Source: Deltaproteobacteria bacterium (lineage in GTDB: Bacteria; Desulfobacterota; Deferrimicrobia; Deferrimicrobiales; Deferrimicrobiaceae). Taken from it: a stretch of DNA of 64,000 bases. This document shows positions 17,741 to 49,980 of this stretch, piece after piece. The stretch is taken from positions 2,282 to 66,281 of the forward strand of contig JBBIVQ010000002.1 in the NCBI GenBank assembly GCA_037439645.1, written 5' to 3'. Made by a program: the position numbers and the translations under genes. The notes below the pieces were generated by a model that saw only the letters and a program-made list of their open reading frames with translations, had not been told where the DNA came from and searched no databases. The stretch's first letter is position 1. Every line of letters begins with the position of its first letter.

Positions 17741-17880
17741 CGGATGCATTATACACAAAACGACCACGCTTCTCCCGGCGGCGGGATGGCGGTCGACGGG
17801 CCATCGATCCGGCGCGGAAGATGTCCCGATTCCCCGTGAATTCGGGCGTGTCCTCCGGTAAGATGGTGAAAACGGGGGCG

Positions 17881-19575
17881 ATGCCCATGAACCGAAGAGG
17901 TTTCAACGAACGGCTTCTCTCCACCCTCTCCGTCCCGGCGTCGGAGGCCGGGACGCTTCTCGATCTCGCGCGCGCGGAGGGGGGGGCTTTCCCGCGTCTC
18001 CTCGTGACCCGGGGGCACCTGAACGGCGAGACGTTGAGGGACGCCTACGAGTCCATCTGCGGAATCCCCCCGTTCCGGGCGGACGCCGATCCCGCGCGCC
18101 CCCTGCCGGGAGAACTCCTCCCGCTGCCGTTCCTCCGCGCGAAGCTGGTATACCCGGTGTCGGTTTCCGACGGGGCCGTTACCGTCGCGATGTCCGATCC
18201 GCTCGACGCGGAAGCGCGGGAGGCGATCGCCAAGGCCACCGGGAAGCGCGTCGAGGTCGTCGCCGCCACCGAGGAGCAGATCCGGGAGGCGATCGAGAAG
18301 ACGTTCGGCGGCGCGGCCGGTTCGATGGAGCGTTTCGTGGAGCAGGTCGGGGACGAAGGCGTGGAGGCGGCCCCCGGTGACGAGCGGGTGGAACAGTTGA
18401 TCGGCGTCGCCTCCGAAGCGCCCATCATCCGGCTGGTCAATTTCGTCCTGGCCCGGGCGATCGAGCGCGGTGCGAGCGATATCCATCTCGAGCCGTACGA
18501 GAAGGCGTTGCGCGTCCGCTACCGGATCGACGGGGTCCTCGAAGACGTGGAATCGCCGCCGCGGCGCCTCCAGACCGCGATCATCTCCCGCATCAAGATC
18601 ATGTCCCGGCTGAACATCGCGGAGAGCCGCCTTCCCCAGGACGGCAGGGTGAGGCTCCGGATCGGCGGCAAGGAGATCGATTTCCGCGTCTCGACGATCC
18701 CCACCCTGTACGGCGAGAGCGTCGTGATCCGGATTCTCGACCAGGCGTCGGTCCCGCTCGACATGGGGACGCTCGGCTTCTTCCCGGACACGCTTTCGAC
18801 ATTCCGCCCGATGGTGTCGGCGCCGTACGGGATGATCCTGGTGACCGGCCCCACCGGAAGCGGGAAGACGACCACGCTGTACGCGGCCCTCCAGGAGATC
18901 CGGTCGCCCGGGCGCAAGATCATCACCATCGAGGATCCGGTGGAGTACCAGATCCCCGGCGTCATCCAGATCCAGGTGAAGCCGCAGATCGGCTTGACGT
19001 TCGCCTCCGGGCTGCGGTCGATCGTCCGCCAGGACCCCGACGTCATCCTGGTCGGCGAGATCCGCGACCGCGAAACGGCGGAGATCGCCATCCACTCGGC
19101 GCTCACCGGGCACATGGTCCTCTCCACCCTCCACACCAACGACGCCCCCGGGGCGGTCACGCGCCTCCTCGAAATGGGGGTCGAGGAGTACCTCCTTCCG
19201 TCGGTCCTGATCGGCGTGCTCGCGCAGCGGCTCGTGCGGACGGTCTGCACCGGGTGCTCCGCCCCGCGGGAGATCTCCGGCGCGCTCCGGGAGGATCTCC
19301 TCCGCGAGGCGGGATTCGTCCCGGAGGGGGACCTGCGGATCGGCCGCGGGTGCGAGGCGTGCGGCGGGACCGGATACCGCGGGCGGTCGGGGATCTTCGA
19401 GCTGCTTCCCGTCACCGGGGAGATCAAGGAACTGATCCTGTCGCGGGCCGATGCCGGAACGCTCCGGACGCGGGCGGCCGCCGCGGGGATGCGGCCGCTG
19501 CGCGACGACGGGTGGGAGAAGGTGCGGCGGGGGACCACGACCGTGGAGGAAGTCCTCCGGGTCACACGGGCGTAG
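17881..19575 (+). CDS. gspE: Type II secretion ATPase
   Basis: ASDIHLEP, DIAE-like NIAESRLPQDGR, TGPTGSGKTTTLY, TIEDPVEY, RQDPDVILVGEIRD, LSTLHTND; exact start uncertain. Confidence 0.93.
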   Translation: MPMNRRGFNERLLSTLSVPASEAGTLLDLARAEGGAFPRLLVTRGHLNGETLRDAYESICGIPPFRADADPARPLPGELLPLPFLRAKLVYPVSVSDGAVTVAMSDPLDAEAREAIAKATGKRVEVVAATEEQIREAIEKTFGGAAGSMERFVEQVGDEGVEAAPGDERVEQLIGVASEAPIIRLVNFVLARAIERGASDIHLEPYEKALRVRYRIDGVLEDVESPPRRLQTAIISRIKIMSRLNIAESRLPQDGRVRLRIGGKEIDFRVSTIPTLYGESVVIRILDQASVPLDMGTLGFFPDTLSTFRPMVSAPYGMILVTGPTGSGKTTTLYAALQEIRSPGRKIITIEDPVEYQIPGVIQIQVKPQIGLTFASGLRSIVRQDPDVILVGEIRDRETAEIAIHSALTGHMVLSTLHTNDAPGAVTRLLEMGVEEYLLPSVLIGVLAQRLVRTVCTGCSAPREISGALREDLLREAGFVPEGDLRIGRGCEACGGTGYRGRSGIFELLPVTGEIKELILSRADAGTLRTRAAAAGMRPLRDDGWEKVRRGTTTVEEVLRVTRA

Positions 19576-19578
19576 CCG

Positions 19579-20802
19579 ATGGCGGTCTTCGGGTACCGGG
19601 TCACCGACGCGTCCGGCCGGGTCACCGAAGGGGTGATCGAGGCGGCGGAGGAGGGGGCGGCGAGAGACCGTCTGCGCGAGCAGGAGCTGACCCCCATCCG
19701 CGTGTGGGCCGCGTCGGCCGGCGTCGGTCCGATCGCTCCGGAAGGGTCGCACGGGACGGGGGTCCGCGCCGCGCGGAGGGACCTTCTGCCGTTCCTCCAG
19801 GGGTTCCGGACGCTCCTGGCGGCCGGCGTCCCGATCGACCGGGCGCTCGAGATGATGGCCGACCTGTTCCGCGGCGGGCCGATGGGGGCGGTGGCGGTGT
19901 CCCTGCTGCGCGAGATCCGGGCGGGGAGCTCCCTCTCCGACGCCATGCGAAAATCCCCCGGCTCCCCCTTCAGCCGGTTTCTCGTCCAGATGGTACAGGC
20001 GGGGCAGGCGACCGGCCGGCTCGAGGAGGCACTGGACCAGGCGTACCGGTTCCTCGACCGGTCGAAGGCGTTTCGTTCGAACCTGCTCGGGTCTCTCATC
20101 TACCCCGTCATCCTCCTCGTCGCCTCCATCGTGTCGGTGGTCCTCCTCGTCGTGTTCGTCGTTCCGCGATTCGCGGGAGTGTTCGCCTCCTCGGGGGTGC
20201 TCCTCCCGCTTCCGACCCGGATCCTCCTGTCGGTCAGTTCCTTCCTCTCCGGGAACTTCCTCTATCTTCTCGCCGCACTGGCCGCCGCCGTCGCCCTGTT
20301 CCGCGCCGCCCTCTCCCGGCCCGGGGCGAGACGGGAATGGGACCGTGGAAAGATGGCGTGGCCCGTCGTGGGGCGGGCCGTCACCGCGATGGAGACGTCC
20401 CGCGTGATGCGCTCCCTGTCGTCCCTTCTCTCCGGCGGGGTCCCGATCCTGTCCGCCTTCGTCATCGCGCGGGAGGTCAGCGGGAACGTGGCGGTGCGGG
20501 AAGGGATGGAGGCGGCGCGGCTGAAGGTGCAGGGAGGCTCCAAGGTGGCGCGCGCCCTCGCGGAGACGACGCCGTTCCCCGCGATGGCGCTCCAGATGAT
20601 CGCGGTGGGCGAGGAGACGGGGCGGCTCGAAGAGATGCTTGCGTCCGTGGCCGACGCGTTCGAGGACCAGGCGAACCGGAGCATGAAGAATTTCCTGACG
20701 ATCCTCGAGCCGGCCGTGATCCTCGCGATGGGCCTGCTGGTCGGGTTCATCGTCTTCTCGATGTTCCTTGCCGTGTTCCGTCTCAACGAGGTGCCGTTCT
20801 GA
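19579..20802 (+). CDS. gspF: Type II secretion inner-membrane platform protein
   Basis: Two T2SSF repeats (AGQATGRL, AVGEETGRL), LIYPVIL, ILEP. Confidence 0.93.
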   Translation: MAVFGYRVTDASGRVTEGVIEAAEEGAARDRLREQELTPIRVWAASAGVGPIAPEGSHGTGVRAARRDLLPFLQGFRTLLAAGVPIDRALEMMADLFRGGPMGAVAVSLLREIRAGSSLSDAMRKSPGSPFSRFLVQMVQAGQATGRLEEALDQAYRFLDRSKAFRSNLLGSLIYPVILLVASIVSVVLLVVFVVPRFAGVFASSGVLLPLPTRILLSVSSFLSGNFLYLLAALAAAVALFRAALSRPGARREWDRGKMAWPVVGRAVTAMETSRVMRSLSSLLSGGVPILSAFVIAREVSGNVAVREGMEAARLKVQGGSKVARALAETTPFPAMALQMIAVGEETGRLEEMLASVADAFEDQANRSMKNFLTILEPAVILAMGLLVGFIVFSMFLAVFRLNEVPF

Positions 20803-21242
20803 TGCGGCGGCGCGGGGCGTTCACCCTGGTCGAGCTGATCGTCGTGCTGGCGCTCGTCGGGCTGCTGGCGGCCCTGATCGCGCCCTCCTTCACCCGCACG
20901 ATCGTTTCCGCGAGACTTCGGTCCGCCGCATCGGACGTCCGGGGGGTCCTTGCCCGCGCGCGCGCGCTGGCGGTCGCCGGGGCGCGGGACCGCGTCGTCA
21001 CGTTCGATCCCGGCAACGGCACGTTCGGCATCGACAACGATACGGTGCACCGCCTTCCGGAGACGATCCGGCTCGGCGGCGCGGGCGATCCGGAGGAAGG
21101 GCGAAACGGCGGGGAGTTCCGGGTCCGGTTCTTCGTCGACGGCAGCGCGCAGGAAGCGGAGATCTTCGTGACGGCGGAGGACGGCGGGAGGCTCCGGGTG
21201 ACGGTCGAGCCGTTGACGGGGATCGCGGAGGCCGGGACGTGA
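20802..21242 (+). CDS. gspH: Minor pseudopilin, GspH/FimT-like
   Basis: RRRGA-FTLVELIVV N-methylation motif (Ala at -1), ARARALA; TGATG coupled to gspF. Confidence 0.8.
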   Translation: MRRRGAFTLVELIVVLALVGLLAALIAPSFTRTIVSARLRSAASDVRGVLARARALAVAGARDRVVTFDPGNGTFGIDNDTVHRLPETIRLGGAGDPEEGRNGGEFRVRFFVDGSAQEAEIFVTAEDGGRLRVTVEPLTGIAEAGT

Positions 21243-21640
21243 TCTCCGGGAAAGCCCGCGAGAAAGGGTTCACGCTCCTCGAAGTCATCGTGGCGATGGC
21301 GCTCTTCGCCGCGGGGATCGTCGCGATCAGCCGGCTCTTCACGGGGGCGCTTCGGCTTTCCGGCGGCGCGCGCGACGCCTCCTCCGCGGTGGTCTACGCC
21401 CGGCAGCGGATGGAGGAGGCGCTCCTTTTGCCCGATCCCTCGGAGGGGATCGAGCGGGGGACCTTCGGGGACTCTTTCCGCTGGAAAGTGGCCACGACGT
21501 TCGTCCCGCAGGAAGAGCCGGAGCCGTACGACGAGATCCGGGTCCTCGTGACGGTCACCTGGGACGATGGCGGGCACGAGCGTTCGATGGATCTGTCGGC
21601 GACGCGCTGGCGGTGGAAGGACCGGGATGAGGGCGCCTGA
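21239..21640 (+). CDS. gspI: Minor pseudopilin
   Basis: EKG-FTLLEVIVAM; GTGA overlap; position in operon. Confidence 0.8.
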   Translation: MISGKAREKGFTLLEVIVAMALFAAGIVAISRLFTGALRLSGGARDASSAVVYARQRMEEALLLPDPSEGIERGTFGDSFRWKVATTFVPQEEPEPYDEIRVLVTVTWDDGGHERSMDLSATRWRWKDRDEGA

Positions 21641-22277
21641 CGCGCGGGGAGGGCGAGGCTTCACGCTCCTCGAGCTGGTCGTCGCGATGACGATCCTCTC
21701 GCTGATCGCGGGGAGCGTGGCGGTGGGGATCCGACTCGCCGCCGGGTCGATCGAGCGCGGGGAGGCGGTGACGCGGGAAGCCTCCCGGCTGCGGGCGGCG
21801 ATCGGGGTCGTCGAACGGTCCCTCCGGTCGGCGGACCCCCTGCCTGTCGCGGTGGAGGACAACACGACGGCGTTCTTCATCGGCGAGGAGAAGCGTGTCC
21901 GGTTCCTGTGCGGCGCGGTCCCTCCCGCGTTGCGCGGCGGCGGCCCGCGGCTCGTCTCGTTTTTCGAGTTGCGGGATCCGGCGGCCGGCGGGCTCGCCGT
22001 GGCGACCGCCTCGCCTTTCCTTCCGGGCGGGGCGGGGAGCTGGGAAGGGACGGGAGGCGCGCGGGTCCTTCTCCCACGGGGGCGGGATCTGCTCTTTTCC
22101 TACTCGGGCGGTCCGACGAAGGAGGGGGCATGGGAATGGCTTCCGTCGTGGGACGTGAAGGAGGCGGGGAGGCTGCCCGCCGCGGTCCGGATCGAGTTCG
22201 TCGTCCCCTCGGAAGGGGGGGGGCGAAAGACCGCCTTCGTGGTCCCGATTCCCGCGGGAGGAGGGATCGGCGGATGA
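21627..22277 (+). CDS. gspJ: Minor pseudopilin
   Basis: GRG-FTLLELVVAM, C-terminal LPAAVRI. Confidence 0.8.
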   Translation: MRAPDARGGRGFTLLELVVAMTILSLIAGSVAVGIRLAAGSIERGEAVTREASRLRAAIGVVERSLRSADPLPVAVEDNTTAFFIGEEKRVRFLCGAVPPALRGGGPRLVSFFELRDPAAGGLAVATASPFLPGGAGSWEGTGGARVLLPRGRDLLFSYSGGPTKEGAWEWLPSWDVKEAGRLPAAVRIEFVVPSEGGGRKTAFVVPIPAGGGIGG

Positions 22278-23185
22278 GGCGGAACCGCGGGATCGCGCAG
22301 ATTCTCGTCTTGTGGGCACTGGCGCTGCTGGGAACGCTCGCCCTCGGGTTCTCCTGGTCGATGCGCACCGAGGCGATGGCCGCCCGGAACGGGATCGACG
22401 AGACGCGCGCCTACTTCCAGGCGCGGACCGGCGTGGACCGGGTCTTGAAACTCCTCGCCACCCTGCCGCCGGACAATGTCCTGCGGATGGCGATCGCCGA
22501 GTCCGACGGGGACGCGTCCTACGAGGTTCGCGTGGAGAGCGAGAGCGGGAAGGTGGACATCAACCTCGTGTCCGAAGGGGTCCTCCTCGAGATCCTCAAG
22601 AAAGGGGGGCTTCCGGCCGATGAGGCGGAAAGCGTCCGCGACGCGATTCTCGACTGGAAAGACGCGGACGATACCCCGAGAGCGCGGGGGGCGGAAGAAC
22701 CGGAGTACGCGCTGTCGCCGGAGCCGGCCCGGCCGCGGAACGGGAAGATCCTCGCGATCGGGGAACTGATGTACGTGAAAGGCGTCACCCCGGAGTTCTT
22801 CCGGGGGTTCCTGGCCCGGGTGTTCACGGCAAACGGGAACTCTCCCCATGTGAATTTCCTCCGGGCACCGGAGGCGGTCCTGCGTTCCCTCCCCGGTGTC
22901 TCCCCCGAAGCGGCCGCGCGGATCGTGGCGCGCCGCGCCGACGACCCGCCGATGACCGCCGCGGAACTCGCCGCGATGGTCGGGGAGGGGATTCTGACGG
23001 CAGAGGGCCTTGCGCTGGTCTCCGGGGCGAGCGCATCGAACGTGTACTCGATCACCGCGATCGGCAAGGCGGGGGGAAACGTGACGCAAGCGGTGCGATG
23101 CCTGGCGGAACTATCCGGGATCGGGGGGAAAGGGGTTAAAATACGGGGTTGGCAGGAGAACGTTTCGCCGGAGGAGGGCGGTTGA
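22274..23185 (+). CDS. gspK: Minor pseudopilin
   Basis: NRG-IAQILVLW (no Glu5), ESGKVDIN, AILDWKD, RPRNG, ELMYVKG, A..AVL..LPG. Confidence 0.85.
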   Translation: MRRNRGIAQILVLWALALLGTLALGFSWSMRTEAMAARNGIDETRAYFQARTGVDRVLKLLATLPPDNVLRMAIAESDGDASYEVRVESESGKVDINLVSEGVLLEILKKGGLPADEAESVRDAILDWKDADDTPRARGAEEPEYALSPEPARPRNGKILAIGELMYVKGVTPEFFRGFLARVFTANGNSPHVNFLRAPEAVLRSLPGVSPEAAARIVARRADDPPMTAAELAAMVGEGILTAEGLALVSGASASNVYSITAIGKAGGNVTQAVRCLAELSGIGGKGVKIRGWQENVSPEEGG

Positions 23186-24630
23186 ATCTGTTCCGGACGA
23201 CCGTGGGGATCGACCCGTCCGGCGGGGGGCTGGCGATCGTGTCGGTCCGCGCCGGGGTCGGCCGTCCTGCCGTCGTGTTTCCGCCTGCGTACCACGAGCC
23301 GAAACCGGAGAAGGAGCCGCTTCGCATCGAGGAGGCGGAGGAGATCCTTTGCGAATACGTCGCACGGCACGGGCTGGTCGGCGCGGAGGCCGTCCTGGTC
23401 GCGCCCGCGGAGCGGGTGTACCTCGCGCGGACCGCCTTTCCCCCGATGAAGGACAAGGACTTTCGGGAAGCCGCCGGACTCGAGTTGGAGCGGCTCTTCC
23501 CGGTTTCTCCCGATACTCTCCGGTTTGTGGCGCGCCGCCTGCAGGCACCGCGGGCAGGCGGAAGGACGGGGGTCGTCGCCGCCGTTCCCGCGCAATTCCT
23601 CGACCGGTGGGGAGAAACGGTCGGACGCAGCGGGTTGGCGCTGTCCGCCGCCGTTCCCGCCCCCTGGGCGGCCGGGGCGGCGATCCGCCGGGTTGGAGCG
23701 GCGGCCGATCCCTCCCGCCCCTTCGTCTTCCTGAGGGGAACCGGGAGGAGCGTGGAGTGCGCCGTGATCGAAGGTGGCGAGCCCGCCTTCTGCGCGTCCC
23801 GTCCCTGTCCTCCGGGGGAAGCGCCCTCGGAAGCGCTCTCCCTCGGGCTTTCCGGGCTCGTCGACTTGCCGGCGCCCGCCGGGGACGCCACGGTGGATCT
23901 GTTCGCGCCCCCTTCCTGGTACCCGGGGGGCGCCCACGGGGTGGAGGCGGGTGGAATCCGGTTCCGCCTGCGCGACGATTTCGCCGGAGCCGCCGCCGCG
24001 CTTTTCCCCGGTACGGCCGGGGGGGAGGCGGGAAGCGCGTTCCGGTTGCTCTGTGCCTTCGGGGCGGCACTCCCCGGGGACCGGGTGGACCTGCTCTCGA
24101 CGCAACGGAACGGGGGCTCTCCGGGGATCGCCCGGGCGGTCCTCGGTGTCTCCGCCGCCGCCGCGATCGCCCTCGGCGTCGCATGGCCGGCGACGGTCGC
24201 GAGGAAGACGAAGGATGAACTGCGGAGCCTGAGCGCACGGGTCGAGGAACTCCGGCCGGCCGTGCGACAGTACGAGGAAACGGTCGCGGAACTCGACGAC
24301 GCCCAGGGTCGGATCGCCACGCTTCGTGAGGAAGGGGCTGCGTCCGGCGAGACGCTCCGGATCCTGAAAGAGTTGACCGACCGGCTTCCGAACGGGACCT
24401 GGCTCCTCTCGTTTCGCGTCGAGGGGAGGAAGGTGGACCTGGAGGGTCTCTCCCCCTCCGCCAGCGAGATCTTTCCCGCGCTGACGCGGGACGGGCGGTT
24501 TCGGGGCGTCGAGTTCGGGGCGCCGATCACGCGCCAGGCGGACAACATCGAGCGGTTCAAGATCCGGGGAGAGTTCATTCCGCCGTCACAATCCGCCGGG
24601 TCCCCTCCCGGGGAGAAGGAGGGGAAATGA
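23182..24630 (+). CDS. gspL: GspL/PilMN-like assembly-platform protein
   Basis: Actin-like N-terminus (VGIDP), single TM, coiled coil, LP.GTWL.SF.....VDLEG PilN-type C-terminus; TTGA overlap. Confidence 0.75.
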   Translation: MNLFRTTVGIDPSGGGLAIVSVRAGVGRPAVVFPPAYHEPKPEKEPLRIEEAEEILCEYVARHGLVGAEAVLVAPAERVYLARTAFPPMKDKDFREAAGLELERLFPVSPDTLRFVARRLQAPRAGGRTGVVAAVPAQFLDRWGETVGRSGLALSAAVPAPWAAGAAIRRVGAAADPSRPFVFLRGTGRSVECAVIEGGEPAFCASRPCPPGEAPSEALSLGLSGLVDLPAPAGDATVDLFAPPSWYPGGAHGVEAGGIRFRLRDDFAGAAAALFPGTAGGEAGSAFRLLCAFGAALPGDRVDLLSTQRNGGSPGIARAVLGVSAAAAIALGVAWPATVARKTKDELRSLSARVEELRPAVRQYEETVAELDDAQGRIATLREEGAASGETLRILKELTDRLPNGTWLLSFRVEGRKVDLEGLSPSASEIFPALTRDGRFRGVEFGAPITRQADNIERFKIRGEFIPPSQSAGSPPGEKEGK

Positions 24631-25259
24631 GTCTCGCTTCCGCTCTTGCCGCGCGCGTTTCCTCGCTCTCCTCCCGGGAGAAGGCGCTGGTGTCGGCGTG
24701 CCTCCTGTGCGTCGTTCTCTTCGGCTCGGTGAAATGGGTGCTCCTGCCGGCGCAAGCGGAACACGCGAGGAACCGGGCCGCGATCTTCGAGCGCAGGGCC
24801 GCGATCGCCCGGTACGAGGCGATCGGCCGGTGGCAGGACCGCCTCGACGAGGAACTGTCGTTGCAGGCCGGGAGGGTGGAAGCATGGGAGGAAGGCCTGC
24901 TCGTCGGGGAGACTCCTTCCGCGGCGGGGGTCTTCCTCCAGGGTTTGCTGAAGCCTCTGACGCAACGTGCGGACACCCGCGTGACGTCGATCAGGGCGCT
25001 TCCTCCCGTGAAGCGCGGCGCATACACGGAAGTGGCGGTCCAGATGGAGATCCAGACGTCGACGGAGGGGCTCGCGCTCCTCCTTGCCGACGTATCCCGG
25101 CAGCAGAAGATCCTCCGGATCCGGAAACTGTCCGCCACAACGGGGGCGTACTTCGCGGGGCAGACGCCGCGGAAGGAAGTGGTCTCCGTGTCCATGGTGG
25201 TGGCGGGACTTTCGGCGGCGGCCGTGGACGACAAATCGCCGGGAGGGGTGGAAGAGTGA
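24627..25259 (+). CDS. gspM: GspM/PilO-like assembly protein
   Basis: SREKALV followed by a TM and coiled coil; position between gspL and the gspC-like gene. Confidence 0.7.
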   Translation: MSLASALAARVSSLSSREKALVSACLLCVVLFGSVKWVLLPAQAEHARNRAAIFERRAAIARYEAIGRWQDRLDEELSLQAGRVEAWEEGLLVGETPSAAGVFLQGLLKPLTQRADTRVTSIRALPPVKRGAYTEVAVQMEIQTSTEGLALLLADVSRQQKILRIRKLSATTGAYFAGQTPRKEVVSVSMVVAGLSAAAVDDKSPGGVEE

Positions 25260-25978
25260 AGCGTCCGGTCTTCATCGCGTCGATCCTTCTCCTGCTGGCG
25301 TTTCTCTTCGGTTGGGAAACGCGGCAGGCGTGGCTGGCGGTCCCCGGCGGAACGGACAACACGGCGGCGGCCCCGCGGGACCTCTGGCAACCCGGGGCCG
25401 CGACCCCCGATCCCGCGCCTCCGGCGGACACGGGACCGATCGTGGCGGCGATCGCGGCGCGGCCCCTCTTCCGGGCGGACCGGCAACCGTACCGCGAATC
25501 CGCCGTCGCGGCCGCCGCCGCGAGGAATTACGAATCGGAACTCGCCCGCTTCACGCTCCTCGGCGTGCTCGGGATCGGGGATACGCTCACCGGGCTCGTG
25601 GTGAGCAAGTCCGGGACGCGGACGGACCGATGGGAGCTGAAGGCTGGGGACGCGCTTCCCGGCTTTACCGTGAAAGCGGTCCGCGCGGACGGCATGGCGG
25701 TGATGGCCGACGGCCGGGAATTCCTCCTTCCCCTCTACGCCGGGGCGCCGACGGCCGCCGCCGGGGCCCTTCGCACGGAAACCCATCGCCGTGATGCTCC
25801 GCCGCCCGCCTCCCCGGTCGCGCATCCGGCCCCTTCGGTGCCGTCCCCGGCGCCTTCCGCACCTGCGGTTTCGGGGCAGGCCACCGTACTTCCCTCCCGG
25901 GTGGCGCCGCCGCCCAGGAATGTTCCGTACCGGTCCGCCCCGATGGGGAACCCGAGGTTCCTCCCGGCAAGACGATGA
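25256..25978 (+). CDS. GspC/GspN-like periplasmic T2SS protein
   Basis: N-terminal TM, RPLF..DRQP, LLGVL, GD.LPGFTV..V...HR-like domain, Pro-rich tail; GTGA overlap. Confidence 0.6.
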   Translation: MKRPVFIASILLLLAFLFGWETRQAWLAVPGGTDNTAAAPRDLWQPGAATPDPAPPADTGPIVAAIAARPLFRADRQPYRESAVAAAAARNYESELARFTLLGVLGIGDTLTGLVVSKSGTRTDRWELKAGDALPGFTVKAVRADGMAVMADGREFLLPLYAGAPTAAAGALRTETHRRDAPPPASPVAHPAPSVPSPAPSAPAVSGQATVLPSRVAPPPRNVPYRSAPMGNPRFLPARR

Positions 25979-28449
25979 AGCGGCACAGGACGATCACGAA
26001 GGGACAGGAGACGAAACGAATGAAACGCATGGGCTGGTTGCTGTGCGCGGCGCTTCTGCCGGCCGCCAACGTCTTCGGCGTGGAAGCGCCCCCTCCCGCC
26101 GTTCCGGCGCCGCCCGCGGTGGTCGAGCCGGCGGAGATTCCGCCGCTCCCGCCGGCCCCCGCCGCTCCGGCGCTTCCCACGGCTCCCGTCCCCGCGGCCG
26201 CTACGCCTGCGCTTCCCGCGGCTCCCGTCCCTGCGGCCGCTACGCCTGCGCTTCCCACGGCTCCCGTCCCCGCGGCCGCTACGCCTGCGCTTCCCGCGGC
26301 TCCCGTCCCCCCGTTTCCGGTTCCTCCTCGCGTCCCGGGACCGGCCGCACCGGCGGCGGCCGTGCCGGCCGGGGTCCCCACGCCGGCGGGCGGGCCCGTT
26401 CCCTTCCCCCGCGCCGTCGCCCCCGCTCCGGCCCCCGCGGTTTCCCACCGGGTTCCCGCCGTGACCGTTTCTTCCCCGCCCCCCGGGCGGCAGGAGGGAG
26501 GTGCCGGTTTCTTCGTGAAGTTCAACAACGCGGACATCTACGAAGTGATCCACACCCTGGGCCGCACGGCGGGGATCAACTACCTGATCGACCCGCGCGT
26601 CCGCGGCGTTGTGAACGTCCACACGCAGGGAGTGGTGCGCAAGGACGGCGCACTCGACCTCCTGTTCGCGATCCTCCGGATCAACGGGGCGACGGCGATC
26701 CGGGAGGGGGAGACGTACCACATCGTCCCGATGGCCGAGGCGAAGATGGAGCCGCTGTTCCCCTCGTTCGCCGGGGACAACGCGGCGAAGTCTCCATCCA
26801 ACCAGGTGGTCATGCGGGCGTTCCCGCTCCAGTACATCGGCGTGGCGGAGATGGGAAAGGTGATCAAGCCGTTCCTGTCGGCCGGAGGGGAGGCGGTGGA
26901 GGTCGCCCGGGCCAACATCCTTCTCGTGATCGACACGGCCGGGAACCTCGAGAAAACGTCGCGCCTTGTGGACCTCTTCGACTCCGAGGTGTTCCGATCC
27001 GCGGGGATGAAGCTGTTCAGGCTCCGGCACATCGATCCGGAGGAGATGGCGAGGAACCTCGACAACATCTTCGGAGCGCTCGATTTTTCCTCCACGCGGG
27101 CGGCCAGGCCGGCGGGGATCAACTTCGTCGCCGTCCCCCGGCTGAACTCGCTTCTGGTGGTCAGCGCGTCCCCGAAAACGATGGAGGACGTCGAGAAATG
27201 GATCGGGGAACTGGACCGGGAGGGGTCCGGAGCGTCCCGGGCGATCCACCGGTACCGGGTCAAGTACGGAAAGGTCAAGGACATCATCGCGGTGCTCGAG
27301 AAGCTGTACCCGAAGCGGACCGCGGCGATCGCCGACCGGACCACGGAGTTCAAGCCGGCGGTGGCCCAGGCGCCCGGGTCCGCGATCTCCCCGGCGTCGC
27401 CGCAGTCGCCGCCCCGCCCGGCTCCCGGGCCCGCCGCGTCCCCGGCGGCCGCATCGAAGGACGGGAAGGACGGGAAAGAGGGCGAGGGTTTCGACATCAT
27501 CCCCGACGAGCCGACGAACTCGCTGATCCTCCGCGCCAGCCTGTCGGAGTACACGGACATCCTCGAGAACCTGAAGGCGATCGACGTCTACCCCCAGCAG
27601 GTGCTGCTCGAGGTGCTGGTGGGAGAGGTGAACCTGAAGGACGACCTGAAGCTCGGGATCGACTGGAAGTGGCAGGGGACGAGGGGGGACGGGTACAGCC
27701 AGACCGCGACCCTGGCCACCGCCCCCGGCCTCGCGGTCAGCAACTTCAGCTACCTGGTCGAGAAGACGGGGCGGCTCACGGCGGCGTTCCGGTCGCTCGC
27801 GGAGAACGGGAGGGCGTCGGTCCTCTCTTCGCCGAGCGTCATCGCGACGAACGGCAAGAAGTCCCGCATCAACGTGGCCGACCAGGTCCCCGTGGTGACA
27901 TCGACGCTGCTGAGCAACACGAACCCGCCGGTGACCACGACCACCGTGGAATACCGGGACGTGGGGGTGATCCTCTCCTTCACCCCGTTCATCAACGACT
28001 TCGGACTGGTCACGCTCGAGATCGAACAGGAGGTGAGCGAGGTCAGCTCCACCTCGTCCGGATCGAACCCGACCTTTTTCAAGCGGAGCATCTCCACGAA
28101 CCTGATCGCCTCCCAGGACCAGAGCATCGTTCTCGGGGGGCTGGTCAAGGAGCGCAAATCCCTCGACCGCTCCGGGTTGCCGTGGATCTACAAGATCCCC
28201 CTCATCGGGTGGCTCTTCGGTTCGCGGGAGGACAGCGTCAGCCGGAACGAGCTGCTGATCTTCATCACGCCCCGGGTGATCCGCAACGTGGAGGAAGGGA
28301 TCCAGCTGAGCCGCGACTTCGAGGAGCGGGTCCAGCAGTTGAAAGGGAGGCTGGTGGAGACGCAGGGTATCCGGCTCAAGGGGCGCGCGGCTCCGCGGGC
28401 GCCGGAGCCGGCTTCGGGCCCTCCGCCGGGGAGCGCGCACCCGCAGTGA
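25975..28449 (+). CDS. gspD: Type II secretion secretin with a Pro/Ala-rich N-terminus
   Basis: KFNNADIYEVI, YLIDPRVRGVVN N0 domain, repeated N domains, QVLLEVLVGEV, SSPSVIATNG, YRDVGVIL, LGGL, PLIGWLF, RNELLIFITPRVI; real start may be 26020. Confidence 0.93.
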   Translation: MKRHRTITKGQETKRMKRMGWLLCAALLPAANVFGVEAPPPAVPAPPAVVEPAEIPPLPPAPAAPALPTAPVPAAATPALPAAPVPAAATPALPTAPVPAAATPALPAAPVPPFPVPPRVPGPAAPAAAVPAGVPTPAGGPVPFPRAVAPAPAPAVSHRVPAVTVSSPPPGRQEGGAGFFVKFNNADIYEVIHTLGRTAGINYLIDPRVRGVVNVHTQGVVRKDGALDLLFAILRINGATAIREGETYHIVPMAEAKMEPLFPSFAGDNAAKSPSNQVVMRAFPLQYIGVAEMGKVIKPFLSAGGEAVEVARANILLVIDTAGNLEKTSRLVDLFDSEVFRSAGMKLFRLRHIDPEEMARNLDNIFGALDFSSTRAARPAGINFVAVPRLNSLLVVSASPKTMEDVEKWIGELDREGSGASRAIHRYRVKYGKVKDIIAVLEKLYPKRTAAIADRTTEFKPAVAQAPGSAISPASPQSPPRPAPGPAASPAAASKDGKDGKEGEGFDIIPDEPTNSLILRASLSEYTDILENLKAIDVYPQQVLLEVLVGEVNLKDDLKLGIDWKWQGTRGDGYSQTATLATAPGLAVSNFSYLVEKTGRLTAAFRSLAENGRASVLSSPSVIATNGKKSRINVADQVPVVTSTLLSNTNPPVTTTTVEYRDVGVILSFTPFINDFGLVTLEIEQEVSEVSSTSSGSNPTFFKRSISTNLIASQDQSIVLGGLVKERKSLDRSGLPWIYKIPLIGWLFGSREDSVSRNELLIFITPRVIRNVEEGIQLSRDFEERVQQLKGRLVETQGIRLKGRAAPRAPEPASGPPPGSAHPQ
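26170..26310 (+). repeat. Coding tandem repeat of 39 bp, about 3.6 copies (ALP[T/A]APVPAAATP)
   Basis: Units start at 26170, 26209, 26248 and 26287, alternating ACG/GCG at the fourth codon. Confidence 0.9.
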
Positions 28450-41550: not shown

Positions 41551-42372
41551 TCACGGGAAGTTGATGTCGAGCTGGACGGTGGCGGTGTTCTGTCCCGCGC
41601 GGGCCTTGTTGTTGTAGACGTCGTAGCCGAAGATCACGCTCACGTTCCTGGCGAAGGCCCACGAGAAGGCGAAGCTGGTGGCGCCGAAGGCGTTCTTGCC
41701 GCCCTGGTGATCCACGGCCACCCAAAGCTTGTCGGAGATTTCGCTCAGGGTCCGATCCCAGGAGGCCAGCAGGCCGCCGTCGTCCCCCTTCACCCCGTTG
41801 GAGTCGTAGACGGTGGCCACGGATGACTTCTTGTTCAGGCCGTAGTAGCCGACCGAGAACCGCCCCACGACGGGAAGGGTCTTGGCGACCAGGCCGTACC
41901 AGATGTTCGCGTCCGTGCCGGCCTTGGTGTAGACGCCGTTTGTGACCTCGCCCTTCTTCGTCCCGATGTTGTACATCCCGACCGCGATCGCCGGGATGAA
42001 AGTGTTGTCCTCGGGCATCCCGATCTTGAAGTTGCCGTAAACGGGATACTTGTCCAGTCCGCTGGAGGTGTTGAAGCCGCCGTAGATCAGATCGAACCCG
42101 ACCTCCGCCTGGATCTTCTCGAACGGCAGCACGCCGACGGTCAGGCCGAGGTCGACGACGGGGGGAGCGTTCTGGCCGCCCGTGCTCGGCTCCGGCTTGG
42201 TGCGTACATAGGTGTCGAACCCGAAGTGCGCCGTCTTGAACGCCTGGATGTCCGTCGACGGGATCCAGATCTGCGTGGACGGCGTGGCCGAGGCGATGCT
42301 CGCCGACAGGCCGCACAACGCGAACGCCGCGAGGGCGACCCCGACCCGATGGATGCTTCGCTTGTTCTTCAT
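41551..42372 (-). CDS. Secreted, probable outer-membrane beta-barrel protein (putative porin)
   Basis: Signal peptide ending ASA, alternating amphipathic beta strands, terminal VQLDINFP resembling an OMP beta-signal. Confidence 0.6.
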   Translation of the reverse strand: MKNKRSIHRVGVALAAFALCGLSASIASATPSTQIWIPSTDIQAFKTAHFGFDTYVRTKPEPSTGGQNAPPVVDLGLTVGVLPFEKIQAEVGFDLIYGGFNTSSGLDKYPVYGNFKIGMPEDNTFIPAIAVGMYNIGTKKGEVTNGVYTKAGTDANIWYGLVAKTLPVVGRFSVGYYGLNKKSSVATVYDSNGVKGDDGGLLASWDRTLSEISDKLWVAVDHQGGKNAFGATSFAFSWAFARNVSVIFGYDVYNNKARAGQNTATVQLDINFP

Positions 42373-44457: not shown

Positions 44458-44486
44458 GCGGACAATCTTCCTCCCTGGAGGTGCGC

Positions 44487-45536
44487 ATGCGCCGATCATC
44501 CGTGATCCGTTTTCACGCCCTGCCGGCCGTTGCCGTCCTGTCCATCCTCCTGATCGCAGGCGGGTGTTCGATGAACCGTGGGTCCGTCACGACGACTTCG
44601 ACCGGCGGGCCGGCGTCCGCCGGGAATACGGAAAGCCCGCACTCCAGGGCCTCGCTCCCGAAGGAGATCGACGTCGCCCTTCGGCTGTCCCCGGGGGATG
44701 AGTGGAAGAGCCGCTTCGTGTCGACCAGCGAGACGAAACGGATCCTCACGGACAAGGCCGGGAAGGAAACCGCGAAGAGCCGTACCGTCGGGCTCGAGAT
44801 CGTCGCGACGCAGAAGATCGTCGACGTGTCGGGTTCCGTGGCGCGGATCGAGATCACCGAGCTCGAATCCCGGATCCTTCAGGACGGGAAGTTCATCCCG
44901 GCCCCGTACAAACAGTTTTCCCCTCCCAATCCCGTATCGTTCACGATCGACTCCGCCACGGGGAAAGTCGATTTCTCGTCCGTGCGGCAGGCGTACGGGA
45001 AGTGGATGGCGGACCTGAAAGAGGGGCCCGCGGGGGACATCCTCGGGAAGACGTTCCGGCTTTCCGCCTACCTCTCCGTGATCGAGGACATGTACGGCAA
45101 ACCGTTCACACGGATCGCGGGAAGGAAGCTGTCCGCCGAATCGGCGACGTCCGGGAAAGACGTCCTGTTCCCCTTCTTCGGGCCGGGCGCGGCCGTCTCC
45201 TCCGTTCCCGTCGAGAGTTCGATGCGCTACACGGGCTTCGAGGCGAAGGGGCGCAAGCACCTGTTGAACGTCTCCGGGGCCTACTCCGGGAGGCCCGAAC
45301 TCTCCTCCGCGGACGAACTCGCGTTCCGGCTGTCGGATTTCGGAGGGGCGGCGTTCCCGAAGGGGTTCACCGGCACCGGCTCGGCCTCCGGGCGGTTCCA
45401 GTCGTCGGTCGATATCCTTTCCGGACGCGAGGAACGGTTCACGGGGCAACTCTCCTATTCCGCGAAATGGACGTCGGAGGGCGCGACGCTGACCGAGGAG
45501 GTCGCCGGCAAGTCGATCCTCGAGCCGGTGGAATGA
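44487..45536 (+). CDS. Hypothetical lipoprotein
   Basis: Lipobox IAGGC after a hydrophobic core, GGAGG RBS, host-like codon usage, ATGA coupling to the next gene; no domain recognised. Confidence 0.7.
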
Positions 45537-46749: not shown

Positions 46750-49629
46750 TTACCGGAAGACGGCGTCTACGCGGCGGTTCTGCTGCCGCCCGTCGGGGGT
46801 CTTGTTGTCGGCGATCGGCTTGTCCATCCCGTAGCCGACCGAGGAGATCTTCGAGGGGTCGACGCCGAGCTTTTCCACCAGGTACTTCTTGACGCTCTCG
46901 GCGCGGCGCTCGGAGAGTTTCCGGTTGTACTTCTTCCCCCCGACGTTGTCGGTGTTCCCCTCGATGGTGACGGTGGTCTCGGGGTACTTCTTCAGGTAGT
47001 CGGCGACGCGCTTGAGGTCGGCGTCATACTTCGGTTTCACGTCGGCCTTCGCCGTGTCGAACTGGACGTTGAGGTGGATGACCTCCTTGACCGGCTTGAC
47101 CGCCGGGGGCGGCGGGGGCGGGGGAGGCGGATTGACGGTTACGGTCGTCGACGCGGTCTGCGAGCCGCCCGCTCCCGTGGCGGTGATGGTGAACCGCCTC
47201 GTGGCGTCGGGACACACCTGCTTCGACCCGGCCGGGTCGACGGACCCGATCCCCTGGTCGATCGAGGCGCCGGAGGCGTTTTCCGAGGACCAGGTCAAGG
47301 TGGAGCACTTCCCCGCGTCGACCGCCGGAGGGTTCGCCGAGAGGGAAACGGCCGGCGCCGCGGGTGGCGGCGGCGGAGGCGGCGGCGGTGCGACCGGCGC
47401 CGGCGGCGGCGGAGGAGGCGGAGCGACCACCGGTTTGGGCTGGGGCGCCGGCGGGGGAGGCGGAGGCGGGGGGGGTGCCTTGGCCAGGTCGAAGAGCCCG
47501 GCGATCCCGAGGAACGCCCTCCACTGCGGGGCCCCCATCCCCTTGTTGAGGCCGGCCCCGGCGCCCGCGGTCAGCGCCAGGCCGGGTTTCAATTCACGGC
47601 GGTAGGCGCCCAGCACCTCGAACGGCGAGGTGACCGTCCGCCCGTACGGGTACGCCATCGGCGTCTCCCCGTTGATCTCCGCCACCAGCTGGTCCTTCCG
47701 GTTCCCCGGCAGGCGGTAGGCGCCGCCCACCCCGTACTGCCACCACGGGGTGTAGTACTTGTCGTTGGTCCGGGCATACCCCGGGTTGCCGACGTGCTCG
47801 GCCCCCAGGTTCGCGTAGAGCGTCGCGGCCTTCGTCACGTCGTAGTGCCCGACCATCCTTGCGCCGATGCCGAACTTCTTCTCCGAGAGGAGGAAGTCGT
47901 CGTTCCCGGTGGGGAAGTTGGCGAACGGTACGACCGCGAGACCGTATCCCGCCTTCCCGAGCAGCCGGAGCTTCGCGTAGGCGCGGATGTCCCCGATGTC
48001 GGAGTCGGAGGTGTACCGGTCGGTGATGACGTTCAGGCTGCGGGAGGCGTAGTTGTACGGGATGTCCACCCCCAGTTCGAGGTACTGCGTCAACCCGTAC
48101 GCCGCGGTCAGGTCGGCGGTGTACAGCTCGTCGACCGCCGTCTTCTCCACCTTCAGCGCCTGGATGTCGCCGAAGTTCATCGGTTTCTTCACGAAGTTGA
48201 CCGTCGCCCCCACGGCGAGCTTGTCCTGCCCGATCGTCTCGTCGGAATCGACCGTGAGCGCGCCCAGGCCGTCGAAGGTGGGGTGGAAGCGCTGCGCCTT
48301 CGGAGCCAGCAGGTGCGTGGCGTGCGCGGACGTCCCGGCCAGGAAGACCGCCGCCACGAGGAACGCGGTCAGCCCGGCTTTGTTAAAAAGCCCCCGCTTC
48401 CTCCGGTGGAAGAATTTCAGGAACGCGACCGGAGCCAGGAGGATGCCGAAGTAGAGGGCGATCATCCCCGCGCTCTCCGCGCCCGACATCGGCCCCTTCC
48501 CGTCCCGGCCCACCACCATCCCGCAGACCACGCCGTTCCCCAGGCCGTCGTCCTGGATCGTGAAGACGGCCGGGGGACTCCCGGCGCCGACCGCGGCGAT
48601 GGCCCTCGGCGTAAAGAGGTCCGGGTCCGATATCGGCAAGCCGGTCCCGGTGATCTGGGTGTCGGTGGACGTATCGAAAACGTATACCACTTCATCGAAT
48701 TCATCCGTGACGAACCCGAGGTTCGTGCCGGGGACCACCGCGACGCCGTACAGGGAGGATGCGCCCGTGAAAACGATCCAATCCACGCTGTCGTCCGACG
48801 TATTGATGACCCAAACGTAGTCCGATTGAGACGCAACGTAGACCTTCGAACCGTCGTTCGATACGGCCATGTTCCTGCCGCCGATGGTCCCTTCACCGGT
48901 GGGGGTCGTGGTGGAGAAATCCGAGGTGTCGATCCGGGTCACGGGGAATCCGGAGGTGTAGACCGCGCTTCCGTCCGGGGTCACCACCGCGTACCGCGGC
49001 TCGCTTCCGACAATGACGGTATCCGTCACCGACCTTGTGGACGTGTCGACGACGCAGACCGTGCCGTTTCCACGATTGACGACGTACGCCTGCCCGAGGA
49101 CCGGGTTCATCGCGATCCCCTCGGGGGAGCTGAAGCATTCGTCGAAGATCGTCCCGGTGACGGCGTTCGAGGCCGTGTCGATGATGGTGACGCTTCCCGT
49201 CGAGCTTCCGCCACCCTGCTTGTTCGCGACCCACGCCTCCGCCCCGTCCGGCGTGACGGCGACGGCGTACGGCTCGTCGAAGTCCGTGTCCTCGACCGTC
49301 GCGACGACCGTGTTGGTGGCCGTGTCGATGACGCTCACGCTGCCGTTTCCGACGCCGATAACCCGAACTCCGACGCCTTGCCGGGACGGGGCTTCCAAGA
49401 TGCTTCCGAACCGGTTCGGGACGTACACCCGGGTGCCAGCGGGGTTCGCCGCAAGGTTCCTCGGTTCGTTTCCGACGGGGATCGAAACGAGCGTGCGGGA
49501 CCCGGTATCGATCGCGGAGACCGTATCCCCGTCGACGTTCGACACGTAGACCGTGCCGGCATGGACCGGCACCGACAGGACGACGGTCGCCACGAGGAAC
49601 GCCAGCGCGGCGGCAACCGTTTTCGCCAT
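46750..49629 (-). CDS. Multidomain protein: YVTN beta-propeller, internal TM plus second signal peptide, beta-barrel, Pro linker, Ig-like domain, OmpA C-terminal domain
   Basis: Repeated G.VSVIDTATNTV/V.VG.EP..A.TPDG units, aromatic-rich beta strands, poly-Pro, VQFDTAK.., IEGNTDNVG...YNRKLSERRAESV, NRRV; alternative start ATG 49671. Confidence 0.85.
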   Translation of the reverse strand: MAKTVAAALAFLVATVVLSVPVHAGTVYVSNVDGDTVSAIDTGSRTLVSIPVGNEPRNLAANPAGTRVYVPNRFGSILEAPSRQGVGVRVIGVGNGSVSVIDTATNTVVATVEDTDFDEPYAVAVTPDGAEAWVANKQGGGSSTGSVTIIDTASNAVTGTIFDECFSSPEGIAMNPVLGQAYVVNRGNGTVCVVDTSTRSVTDTVIVGSEPRYAVVTPDGSAVYTSGFPVTRIDTSDFSTTTPTGEGTIGGRNMAVSNDGSKVYVASQSDYVWVINTSDDSVDWIVFTGASSLYGVAVVPGTNLGFVTDEFDEVVYVFDTSTDTQITGTGLPISDPDLFTPRAIAAVGAGSPPAVFTIQDDGLGNGVVCGMVVGRDGKGPMSGAESAGMIALYFGILLAPVAFLKFFHRRKRGLFNKAGLTAFLVAAVFLAGTSAHATHLLAPKAQRFHPTFDGLGALTVDSDETIGQDKLAVGATVNFVKKPMNFGDIQALKVEKTAVDELYTADLTAAYGLTQYLELGVDIPYNYASRSLNVITDRYTSDSDIGDIRAYAKLRLLGKAGYGLAVVPFANFPTGNDDFLLSEKKFGIGARMVGHYDVTKAATLYANLGAEHVGNPGYARTNDKYYTPWWQYGVGGAYRLPGNRKDQLVAEINGETPMAYPYGRTVTSPFEVLGAYRRELKPGLALTAGAGAGLNKGMGAPQWRAFLGIAGLFDLAKAPPPPPPPPPAPQPKPVVAPPPPPPPAPVAPPPPPPPPPAAPAVSLSANPPAVDAGKCSTLTWSSENASGASIDQGIGSVDPAGSKQVCPDATRRFTITATGAGGSQTASTTVTVNPPPPPPPPPAVKPVKEVIHLNVQFDTAKADVKPKYDADLKRVADYLKKYPETTVTIEGNTDNVGGKKYNRKLSERRAESVKKYLVEKLGVDPSKISSVGYGMDKPIADNKTPDGRQQNRRVDAVFR

Positions 49630-49980
49630 GCGACCTCTTTCTCTTCGGGACCCTTCCGATCCGGATTTCATTATTTCCCCTCCCCCCTTCTCCGGTAGTG
49701 CTGGACGCACAAGCCCCCGGAGGATATTTTGTACGACCGGTGGAAAACGGGTTCCCCGGGCAAACGGTATGCCCGGAAATTGATCGTCTTGAGCGCCGAT
49801 TGGATAAACATATTCACCTGCTTGTATGACTGCAACATTTTTTTCGACCCGCGAATTTCCCGTCTCTTCCAAATGCCGGGGAACGCGGTTTTCCGTTCGG
49901 GTTGGGTGTTCGGAAAGCCGTCCCGAAAGGGGAGGGCGGGGTAAGGACGCGCCCGGCGTTCGAGCCGTTATTGGCGCCGT

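Follow-up and report, generated by a model that had tools for sequence, protein, structure and literature searches.

Can a single bacterial open reading frame (ORF) supply the cell envelope with two separately sorted proteins? The question is raised by a gene on the minus strand of a 64,000-nucleotide stretch of DNA from a Deltaproteobacteria bacterium (contig JBBIVQ010000002.1 of assembly GCA_037439645.1), here called the window, in which one uninterrupted frame holds a YVTN-type beta-propeller, a cysteine (Cys) motif laid out like a sorting tag, a second signal peptide, a beta-barrel and an OmpA domain. All the strings that the initial annotation of this DNA had quoted from the frame were found where it had placed them, and its reading of the junction between the two halves, as a stop-transfer segment resembling a sorting tag, with a true signal peptide directly behind it, is supported by stand-alone homologues, by the MYXO-CTERM scores of distant fusions and by the split traA/traB genes of Myxococcus xanthus. 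The gene appears, from sequence comparison, to be a natural fusion of two envelope proteins that are elsewhere encoded as a translationally coupled pair, for which TraA/TraB is the prototype. If it is cut as predicted, one bacterial ORF would yield both a beta-barrel for the outer membrane and a partner that is sorted separately and probably anchored by a lipid, and the cut would use two back-to-back topogenic signals, a compact polyprotein logic in envelope biogenesis.

Conservation of the junction in close homologues

A look-up of the complete window protein by exact sequence returned no record. A search with its residues 340-732 against 5.8 billion proteins returned 29 relatives, which were lined up on the invariant anchor PKAQR[FY]HP. 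The junction was uninterrupted in all 20 of those that reach far enough upstream, and further copies on contigs of metagenome-assembled genomes (MAGs) bring the total to about 25 close homologues from NCBI, JGI, ENA and Logan assemblies; the shorter matches of the search are truncated fragments (P0016, from an error-prone contig on which ORFs are broken up, and P0020, from a contig of 1.1 kb). The consensus of the junction reads …G.G(W.)G(S)CGMVVGRDGKGPMS..E.AGMIALYFALLLLPVGILKL.HGRKR.P.EKAGIVALF.VASMLVASSAHA.RLIAPKAQRFHPT…, and 16 of its columns are invariant in a nine-sequence alignment (G, C383, G, V, two G, A, LYF, L, PV, LK, R), a conservation well beyond chance. The closest relative, P0001, is 79% identical and its substitutions at the junction are conservative. 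All close homologues long enough to cover it retain an AxA-type site, with the single exception of P0019 (ADA), and the small-x-small site before the barrel is retained through substitutions (AHA, AQA, ARA, VHA, ANA, AAA, ASA). In a rule-based check the second signal peptide shows a basic n-region, an h-region within the range of 10-16 residues, and a c-region whose -3 and -1 residues are small and which no Pro follows at +1, a pattern shared by 61 of 62 fused relatives.

Might the barrel be translated from a start of its own? The statement in the initial annotation that no start codon precedes the second signal held for the stretch between K419 and V439, where there is no ATG, GTG or TTG, but not further upstream, where in-frame M385, M395 and M403 are present, all of them including the first transmembrane helix (TM1); the GTG of V439 already lies within the second hydrophobic core. 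An internal translation start was rejected on two grounds: the frame offers no ATG, GTG or TTG from TM1 to the second h-region, and no Met is conserved among the homologues. On the minus strand at 48390-48410, codons R423-R424-K425 spell GGAGGAAG, a strong Shine-Dalgarno-like string with no start codon within the 20 nt after it. It could be a relic of a once-separate barrel gene, or mere codon usage.

Fused and stand-alone forms across the barrel family

A profile of the junction and barrel (A2) was run against 1.84 billion representative proteins. It recovered 2948 relatives at a threshold of E<=1e-3, of which 1057 remain at E<=1e-10, and two classes were seen among the best 150 of the 2948. 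Stand-alone proteins of about 290-650 amino acids (aa) match from profile positions ~55-88, those of the second signal peptide, with their own residues ~2-30, and begin with an ordinary AxA signal peptide followed by the barrel (P0051, …SKAEA/LDVQRFHP; P0119, …GSALA/LNIQSFKP; here and below a slash marks the end of a signal peptide). In fused proteins of 800-2583 aa, the match is internal and starts at TM1. The string AxA/LN(V/I)Q.F.P is common to the stand-alone P0051 and P0119 and the fused P0064, P0078, P0122 and P0157. The internal hydrophobic segment with its AxA site is positionally equivalent to the N-terminal signal peptides of the stand-alone proteins.

Distant fusions illustrate how far the junction sequences may diverge while the order of parts is kept. 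In P0072 the junction is GSGCGCSAGAGN-AAGLAPLMLLGLLGLVTW-RRRSFKGVSGK-AGALLVVLLGGASTGAAQ, in P0078 it is FFGCGL…-TM-RKKIVSFKK-ISILFLAVLVFATVNCKDAKA/LNVQLFKP, and in P0116, which like the window protein has a YVTN propeller, GGGGCSAAPGG…-TM-RLARGRGGR-ILPFFLLLTVAAPWVSHA/FDAHIFRP (TM, transmembrane helix). We checked the junction by script in all 62 examined proteins whose barrel starts past residue 150: two hydrophobic segments precede the barrel in every one of them (62/62), a Cys lies at most 30 residues ahead of the first segment in 56/62, the loop holds at least two Lys or Arg in 59/62, and the second segment ends in a small-x-small site in 61/62.

Among 163 full-barrel sequences, 61 are fused, 78 are clean stand-alone proteins and 24 are unclassifiable fragments, so that the fused form makes up 61 of the 139 that can be classified. 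A rough neighbour-joining tree requires at least 16 changes of state, as compared with about 46 for shuffled labels, the tree being a crude one. Fusion or fission thus seems to have occurred repeatedly, and many changes of state are what would be expected if fused and split forms work equally well. The initial annotation had asked whether homologues share the fused junction or are split genes: many are fused, but stand-alone and split forms also exist. Its view that the architecture is unusual in bacteria has to be moderated, given a precedent in MXAN_5598 (PMC11980579) and the frequency of fusions in this barrel family.

A further type of junction was noticed in P0112, P0113, P0172, P0082 and P0104, which share the box GGGGCFIATAA(F/Y)GS…HV.VLR.FRD..L; the order is Cys-box, a domain of ~60 residues, TM helix, basic loop, signal peptide and barrel. 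By its sequence this Cys-box is distinct both from MYXO-CTERM and from the tag of the window protein.

Organization of the gene and identity of its barrel half

The single frame runs from 49872 down to the stop at 46750 on translation of the minus strand. The ATG at 49671 is taken as the likely start of the 973-aa gene because GGAGG, at 49679-49683, stands 7 nt 5' of it. Homologues carry an equivalent N-terminal signal peptide (MKK…APAHA/LF).

Table 1. Parts of the fused gene, with window positions and residue numbers of the encoded protein
Feature	Position	Strand	Basis
Whole gene, 973 aa plus stop	46750..49671	minus	ORF listing and translation
N-terminal Sec signal peptide, aa 1-38 (…AALAFLVATVVLSVPVHA/GT, end SVPVHA/GT)	49558..49671	minus	read from sequence
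YVTN-type beta-propeller, ~aa 39-365, variable 'passenger' module	48577..49557	minus	NCBIfam TIGR02276
Cys signature motif DGLGNGVVC383GMVVGRDGKGPMS, aa 375-396	48484..48549	minus	G, C, G, V, G columns invariant across clade
TM1, predicted stop-transfer helix SAGMIALYFGILLAPVAFLKFF, aa 400-421, conserved LYF…LLPV.ILK	48409..48474	minus	alignment and low-confidence AF2 helix
Basic loop HRRKRGLFNK, aa 422-431, predicted cytoplasmic	48379..48408	minus	alignment
Second signal peptide: h-region AGLTAFLVAAVFLAG (aa 432-446) and c-region TSAHA (aa 447-451)	48319..48378	minus	aligns with stand-alone N-terminal signal peptides
TraB-like outer-membrane beta-barrel, aa 452-731, predicted mature N-terminus THLLAPKAQRFHPT	47479..48318	minus	NF033763, AF2, Foldseek
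Proline-rich linker 1, aa 732-773	47353..47478	minus	read from sequence
Ig-like domain, aa 774-847	47131..47352	minus	assigned from sequence only; also in P0001
Proline-rich linker 2 and OmpA peptidoglycan-binding domain, aa 848-973	46753..47130	minus	Pfam PF00691

Each half of the protein has recognizable homologues, and the domains that the initial annotation had named are present in the order given (Table 1). The NCBIfam model TIGR02276 finds 5 YVTN repeats in the N-terminal half (E 1.6e-26, 92 bits against a cutoff of 27.85), and Pfam PF00691 places the OmpA domain at aa 871-966 (91.6 bits against a gathering cutoff of 27.2, E 4e-26); a poly-Pro stretch and the Ig-like domain, which was read from the sequence and has no Pfam match at aa 774-847, stand between barrel and OmpA. 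The string GNGVVCGMV starts at aa 378 (window 48540) and contains C383, HRRKR occupies aa 422-426 and GLFNK aa 427-431, and the loop that these two form appears to double as the Arg/Lys cluster of a sorting tag and the n-region of the second signal peptide. That signal peptide has the AxA site claimed for it, TSAHA standing directly before THLLAPK, which starts at aa 452 (window 48318); the predicted cut by signal peptidase I (SPase I) falls after A451, between window positions 48319 and 48318. With 547 residues after it, the tag is internal, not C-terminal.

The barrel half matches the NCBIfam TraB model NF033763 at aa 458-969 (E 1.1e-24, covering positions 21-494 of the 522 in the model). 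At 86.3 bits it falls well short of the 700-bit curated cutoff, which makes the half a distant relative of TraB and not an orthologue. In homologues the match begins at model positions 2-25, which aligns the signal peptide of TraB onto the internal hydrophobic segment. The window protein has the TraB architecture of signal peptide, N-terminal barrel, linker and C-terminal OmpA, its linker consisting of poly-Pro and Ig-like segments rather than TSP3 repeats. An AlphaFold2 (AF2) model of aa 366-735 contains a barrel of ~12 strands at a predicted local distance difference test score (pLDDT) of 70-93, the first strand beginning ~33 residues after AHA. Close homologues carry a Pfam PF13557 record. 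The top PDB matches in Foldseek are the 12-stranded polypeptide transporter FapF and the COG4313 channel (E 3e-10 to 1e-7), with target-normalized TM-scores of 0.6-0.7 at 13-16% sequence identity; these are the best structural matches to the predicted barrel, and the likeness is one of fold, which is no evidence for a common function.

Proposed processing and competing explanations

We infer the following course for the topology of the precursor, its cleavage and the fate of its products. The N-terminal signal peptide would start Sec export of the propeller until TM1 (aa 400-421) halts the transfer, with the HRRKR loop kept in the cytoplasm by the positive-inside rule. The second hydrophobic segment (aa 432-446) would re-enter SecYEG as an internal signal peptide, and an SPase I cut after AHA451 would free the 12-stranded TraB-like barrel with its Ig-like and OmpA domains; the beta-barrel assembly machinery (BAM) would integrate this barrel in the outer membrane, with the OmpA domain tying the product to peptidoglycan. 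The propeller, held in the inner membrane by the hairpin of TM1, loop and signal peptide, would carry in its C383 motif a Cys-type tripartite sorting tag of the MYXO-CTERM class, whose Cys would be lipidated and where an intramembrane protease would cut the chain. The propeller could move in this way to the outer membrane or the cell surface and work with the barrel from the same precursor. We hold the whole scheme, comprising fusion, SPase I split, Cys-tag sorting and partnership, to be moderately probable, and consider it quite likely, as a narrower point, that SPase I divides the precursor into two proteins.

Sorting by the Cys motif is suggested by the tripartite layout of invariant C383, TM1 and HRRKR, and by distant fused junctions that score at or near the cutoffs of the MYXO-CTERM/GC_trans_RRR models (20 bits for TIGR03901, 15.85 bits for TIGR03382): P0072 reaches 26.7 bits (cutoff 20), P0044 reaches 19.8, and P0135 reaches 19.0 on TIGR03382.

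Several observations weigh against this part of the scheme. The window junction gave no match to MYXO-CTERM (TIGR03901/TIGR03382) or other CTERM models even at E<=10, and the Cys stands ~17 residues before TM1, with a conserved RDGKGPMS spacer between the two, a longer distance than in MYXO-CTERM. The DNA pattern for CGMVVGxDGKG, a strict one that divergent free-standing tags may escape, occurs on four contigs in 185,579 species-representative genomes, all of them known fused loci; because it occurs only inside fused genes there, a general sorting enzyme with many substrates does not seem to be indicated in this lineage. No CPBP active-site motif was found in the six frames of the 64-kb window, and no CPBP-type protease in the Pfam-annotated flanks of homologous loci. 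The two helices of the hairpin, TM1 and the second hydrophobic segment, are of low confidence in the AF2 model. As to partnership, locus L013 (~3450-5285) encodes a stand-alone TraB-like protein with signal peptide, barrel, TSP3-like repeats and OmpA, and no TraA-like or tagged gene lies upstream of it; the barrel family is therefore not always partnered. L013 is the sole full-length stand-alone locus from the single-protein search, the alignment of stand-alone barrels (A4) being too divergent to serve as a seed for a search for loci. A search with a tag-only profile (A3) against the 5.8 billion proteins returned nothing except P0174, a 45-aa fragment whose contig of 26,067 nt has the length of the one that carries fragment P0022; since it missed the known fused proteins too, it is uninformative and not evidence that free-standing tags are absent.

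A type II secretion system (T2SS) cluster lies at window 17821-28449 on the plus strand, with a GspE-like ATPase (T2SSE, E 5e-138), GspF, GspK, a PilN/GspL-like protein, GspM and a GspD secretin. It is 18 kb off, and any link to the fused gene is speculative.

The failure of the tag on all CTERM hidden Markov models (HMMs), its unusually long spacing, its absence in free-standing form from the species-representative genomes and the lack of a visible sorting protease in the window and in annotated homologous flanks would all suit a cell in which SPase I cleaves the precursor while the propeller stays anchored in the inner membrane by the hairpin, facing the periplasm, with a Cys motif that is not a sorting tag and may be structural or in contact with the barrel. 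Yet the Cys and its flanking Gly are invariant across the clade, more distant fusions have a bona fide MYXO-CTERM at the same place, and the succession of motif, TM helix and basic residues is that of sorting tags (PMC11980579), and we regard this outcome, the main rival, as unlikely, while taking it seriously.

If SPase I did not cut at all, the product would be one chain through the whole envelope, made up of a periplasmic propeller, a hairpin embedded in the inner membrane, a barrel in the outer one and an OmpA domain attached to the cell wall, and a single ORF without an internal start codon would agree with that. The small-x-small c-region is, however, conserved and positionally homologous to that of stand-alone signal peptides, and the chain between AHA and the first barrel strand measures only ~33 residues. 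Such a length is too short to cross the periplasm, and BAM substrates arrive as free periplasmic chains. An uncleaved product is in our opinion improbable.

The order of passenger, linker and 12-strand barrel also recalls an autotransporter (type V), in which case the hydrophobic junction would be the linker by which the propeller is passed through the barrel at the C-terminus; Foldseek lists the autotransporter EstA too, and its top match FapF is a polypeptide transporter. Against this, the junction consists of two TM-grade segments around an Arg/Lys cluster, a combination that would arrest in SecYEG, unlike the amphipathic linkers of autotransporters. Homologues moreover exist as two genes and as stand-alone barrels, the best folds are FapF and COG4313 rather than autotransporter barrels, and there is no Pfam autotransporter match, which leaves this explanation very improbable. 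The weakest candidate is that the frame arose as an artefact of assembly or sequencing, or that two adjacent genes were recently fused in the manner of a pseudogene. It could appeal to the G5 and T5 homopolymer runs in the junction DNA and to relatives fragmented on error-prone contigs (L002), but we give it next to no credence: an assembly error or private frameshift fusion, which the initial annotation had wanted checked, is excluded by the comparison, because the identical frame and junction recur in ~25 independently assembled close homologues, P0001 among them with its conservative substitutions, and the same layout is found in all 62 distant fusions.

Interchangeable N-terminal modules and the surrounding locus

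Among close homologues, the conserved cassette is joined to at least four unrelated types of N-terminal domain. YVTN propellers occur in the window protein, P0013, P0019, L004 and the second gene of L001; an uncharacterized domain marked by ALFTNGGFEDGTF…LDGFRSQAS in P0003, P0004, P0005, P0009-12 and P0026; PQQ_2/BamB-like propellers, recognized by Pfam, in P0014, P0033, L003 and L007; and other domains in P0002 and P0015, with an Ig-like one in P0017. P0002 and P0004 have identical cassettes and different N-terminal domains.

The locus is syntenic in the relatives, running from RNase T through one to three fused genes to a convergent deoxyhypusine-synthase-like gene, a 350-aa protein and a sigma-54 activator, and beyond it to a 262-282-aa protein without a Pfam match, Amt and P-II; the window too has the downstream half of the series. 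Two of the conserved neighbours there have no Pfam match: a 351-aa predicted lipoprotein (…AGGCSMN…; 44481-45536, plus strand) that adjoins the deoxyhypusine-synthase-like gene, and a 273-aa secreted protein, porin-like from its sequence, upstream of Amt/P-II (41551-42372, minus strand).

Some loci hold fused genes in tandem with unrelated N-terminal domains, two in L001 (10001-11956 and 12161-14449) and three in L003 (245-2215, 2305-4911 and 5000-7303). In the L001 pair the last ~800 nt are 100% identical, and identity falls across the junction through 0.98, 0.86, 0.79 and 0.71 until the genes are unrelated; in L003 the first and third genes share an identical final ~450 nt. The identical 3' ends of these tandem paralogues reflect either gene conversion of the barrel cassette or collapse of a repeat during assembly.

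It may be, though we think it rather unlikely, that tag, hairpin, signal peptide and barrel together form a self-contained device for surface display, in effect a split autotransporter divided by SPase I, whose FapF/COG4313-like barrel would receive, translocate or anchor its own propeller in the outer membrane by recognizing the CGMVVG tag, which in species-representative genomes never occurs apart from such barrels. If so, swaps of N-terminal domains on a gene-converted cassette would furnish a single syntenic locus with a whole set of binding modules for display.

Significance

An architecture of this kind has been described before, though not how frequent or widespread it is, nor what the second signal peptide does in it, and new in the window gene are the type of Cys tag, the lineage, the N-terminal domain and the explicit junction of sorting tag plus signal peptide. 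The internal sorting tag, regarded as atypical for MXAN_5598, is a recurrent state of the TraB-like barrel family (61/139 classifiable representatives), gained or lost many times on the rough tree, and one that extends outside Myxococcota with a new variant of the tag. This provides an annotation rule for genes that at present carry the label 'hypothetical' or 'PQQ-binding-like propeller, partial', constructs made by nature with which to ask if a Cys-type sorting tag can function internally, and a clue to the part that TraB-type barrels play for their partners.

Comparison with known systems

In M. xanthus, TraA is made up of a variable PA14-like domain, Cys-rich repeats and a MYXO-CTERM tag (invariant Cys, TM helix, Arg cluster), and TraB of a signal peptide, an outer-membrane barrel and an OmpA domain (PMC3325183, PMC6372800). 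Their ORFs overlap by 4 bases (PMC3325183), so that the tag already adjoins the following signal peptide in the DNA and a single mutational step would be enough to fuse the two. The window gene resembles this pair in both halves: the TraB model covers the barrel half together with its signal peptide and OmpA domain, the N-terminal half is, like TraA, a variable binding-type domain that ends in Cys motif, TM helix and basic cluster, and the Cys-tagged module stands directly upstream of the barrel signal peptide, here in-frame. The varying N-terminal domains on a conserved barrel among its relatives also recall the polymorphism of TraA. The differences are that there are two ORFs there and one here; that the N-terminal domain is a YVTN propeller, not PA14 with Cys-rich repeats; that the tag is CGMVVG… with a ~17-residue spacer, not MYXO-CTERM by HMM, and TSP3 repeats are missing; and that the relatives of the window gene are MAGs labelled Deltaproteobacteria, Desulfobacteria or Deferrimonas, not Myxococcota. 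The analogy would not imply a role in membrane exchange. Three relatives (P0074, P0133, P0167) are single ORFs whose N-terminal half matches the TraA model and whose C-terminal half matches that of TraB, and they look like TraA-TraB fusions; published traAB surveys report overlapping separate genes only (PMC6372800).

MYXO-CTERM is cut by the CPBP-family intramembrane protease MrtX, its Cys is thought to be lipidated, and surface display requires the T2SS (PMC11980579). The window protein has the same tripartite layout of motif, TM helix and basic residues as the tags processed by MrtX and other CPBP-family myxosortases, but its tag is internal rather than C-terminal, differs in motif and spacing and has no HMM match. 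The closest precedent was described by Guo, Haft and Wall (mBio 2025), who noted in MXAN_5598 an internal MYXO-CTERM followed by an outer-membrane barrel and OmpA, called the case rare or atypical and untested, and proposed that the N-terminal part is processed and surface-anchored, resembling TraA plus TraB (PMC11980579). Compared by its description, MXAN_5598 has the same overall architecture as the window gene; the second signal peptide and release of the barrel by SPase I are, however, not discussed there, and the window tag is a different one that HMMs do not recognize.

One of the distant fusions, P0044, also has a weak match to the NCBIfam family 'midcut-by-XrtH', a family of mid-protein sorting signals. 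The cytochrome b/c1 precursor FbcH of Bradyrhizobium is a polyprotein with an internal signal peptide. As in these two systems, the window gene would be one ORF split at an internal signal by envelope proteases, but the proteins are unrelated, and the window protein has both kinds of signal back to back and products that would be bound for different membranes.

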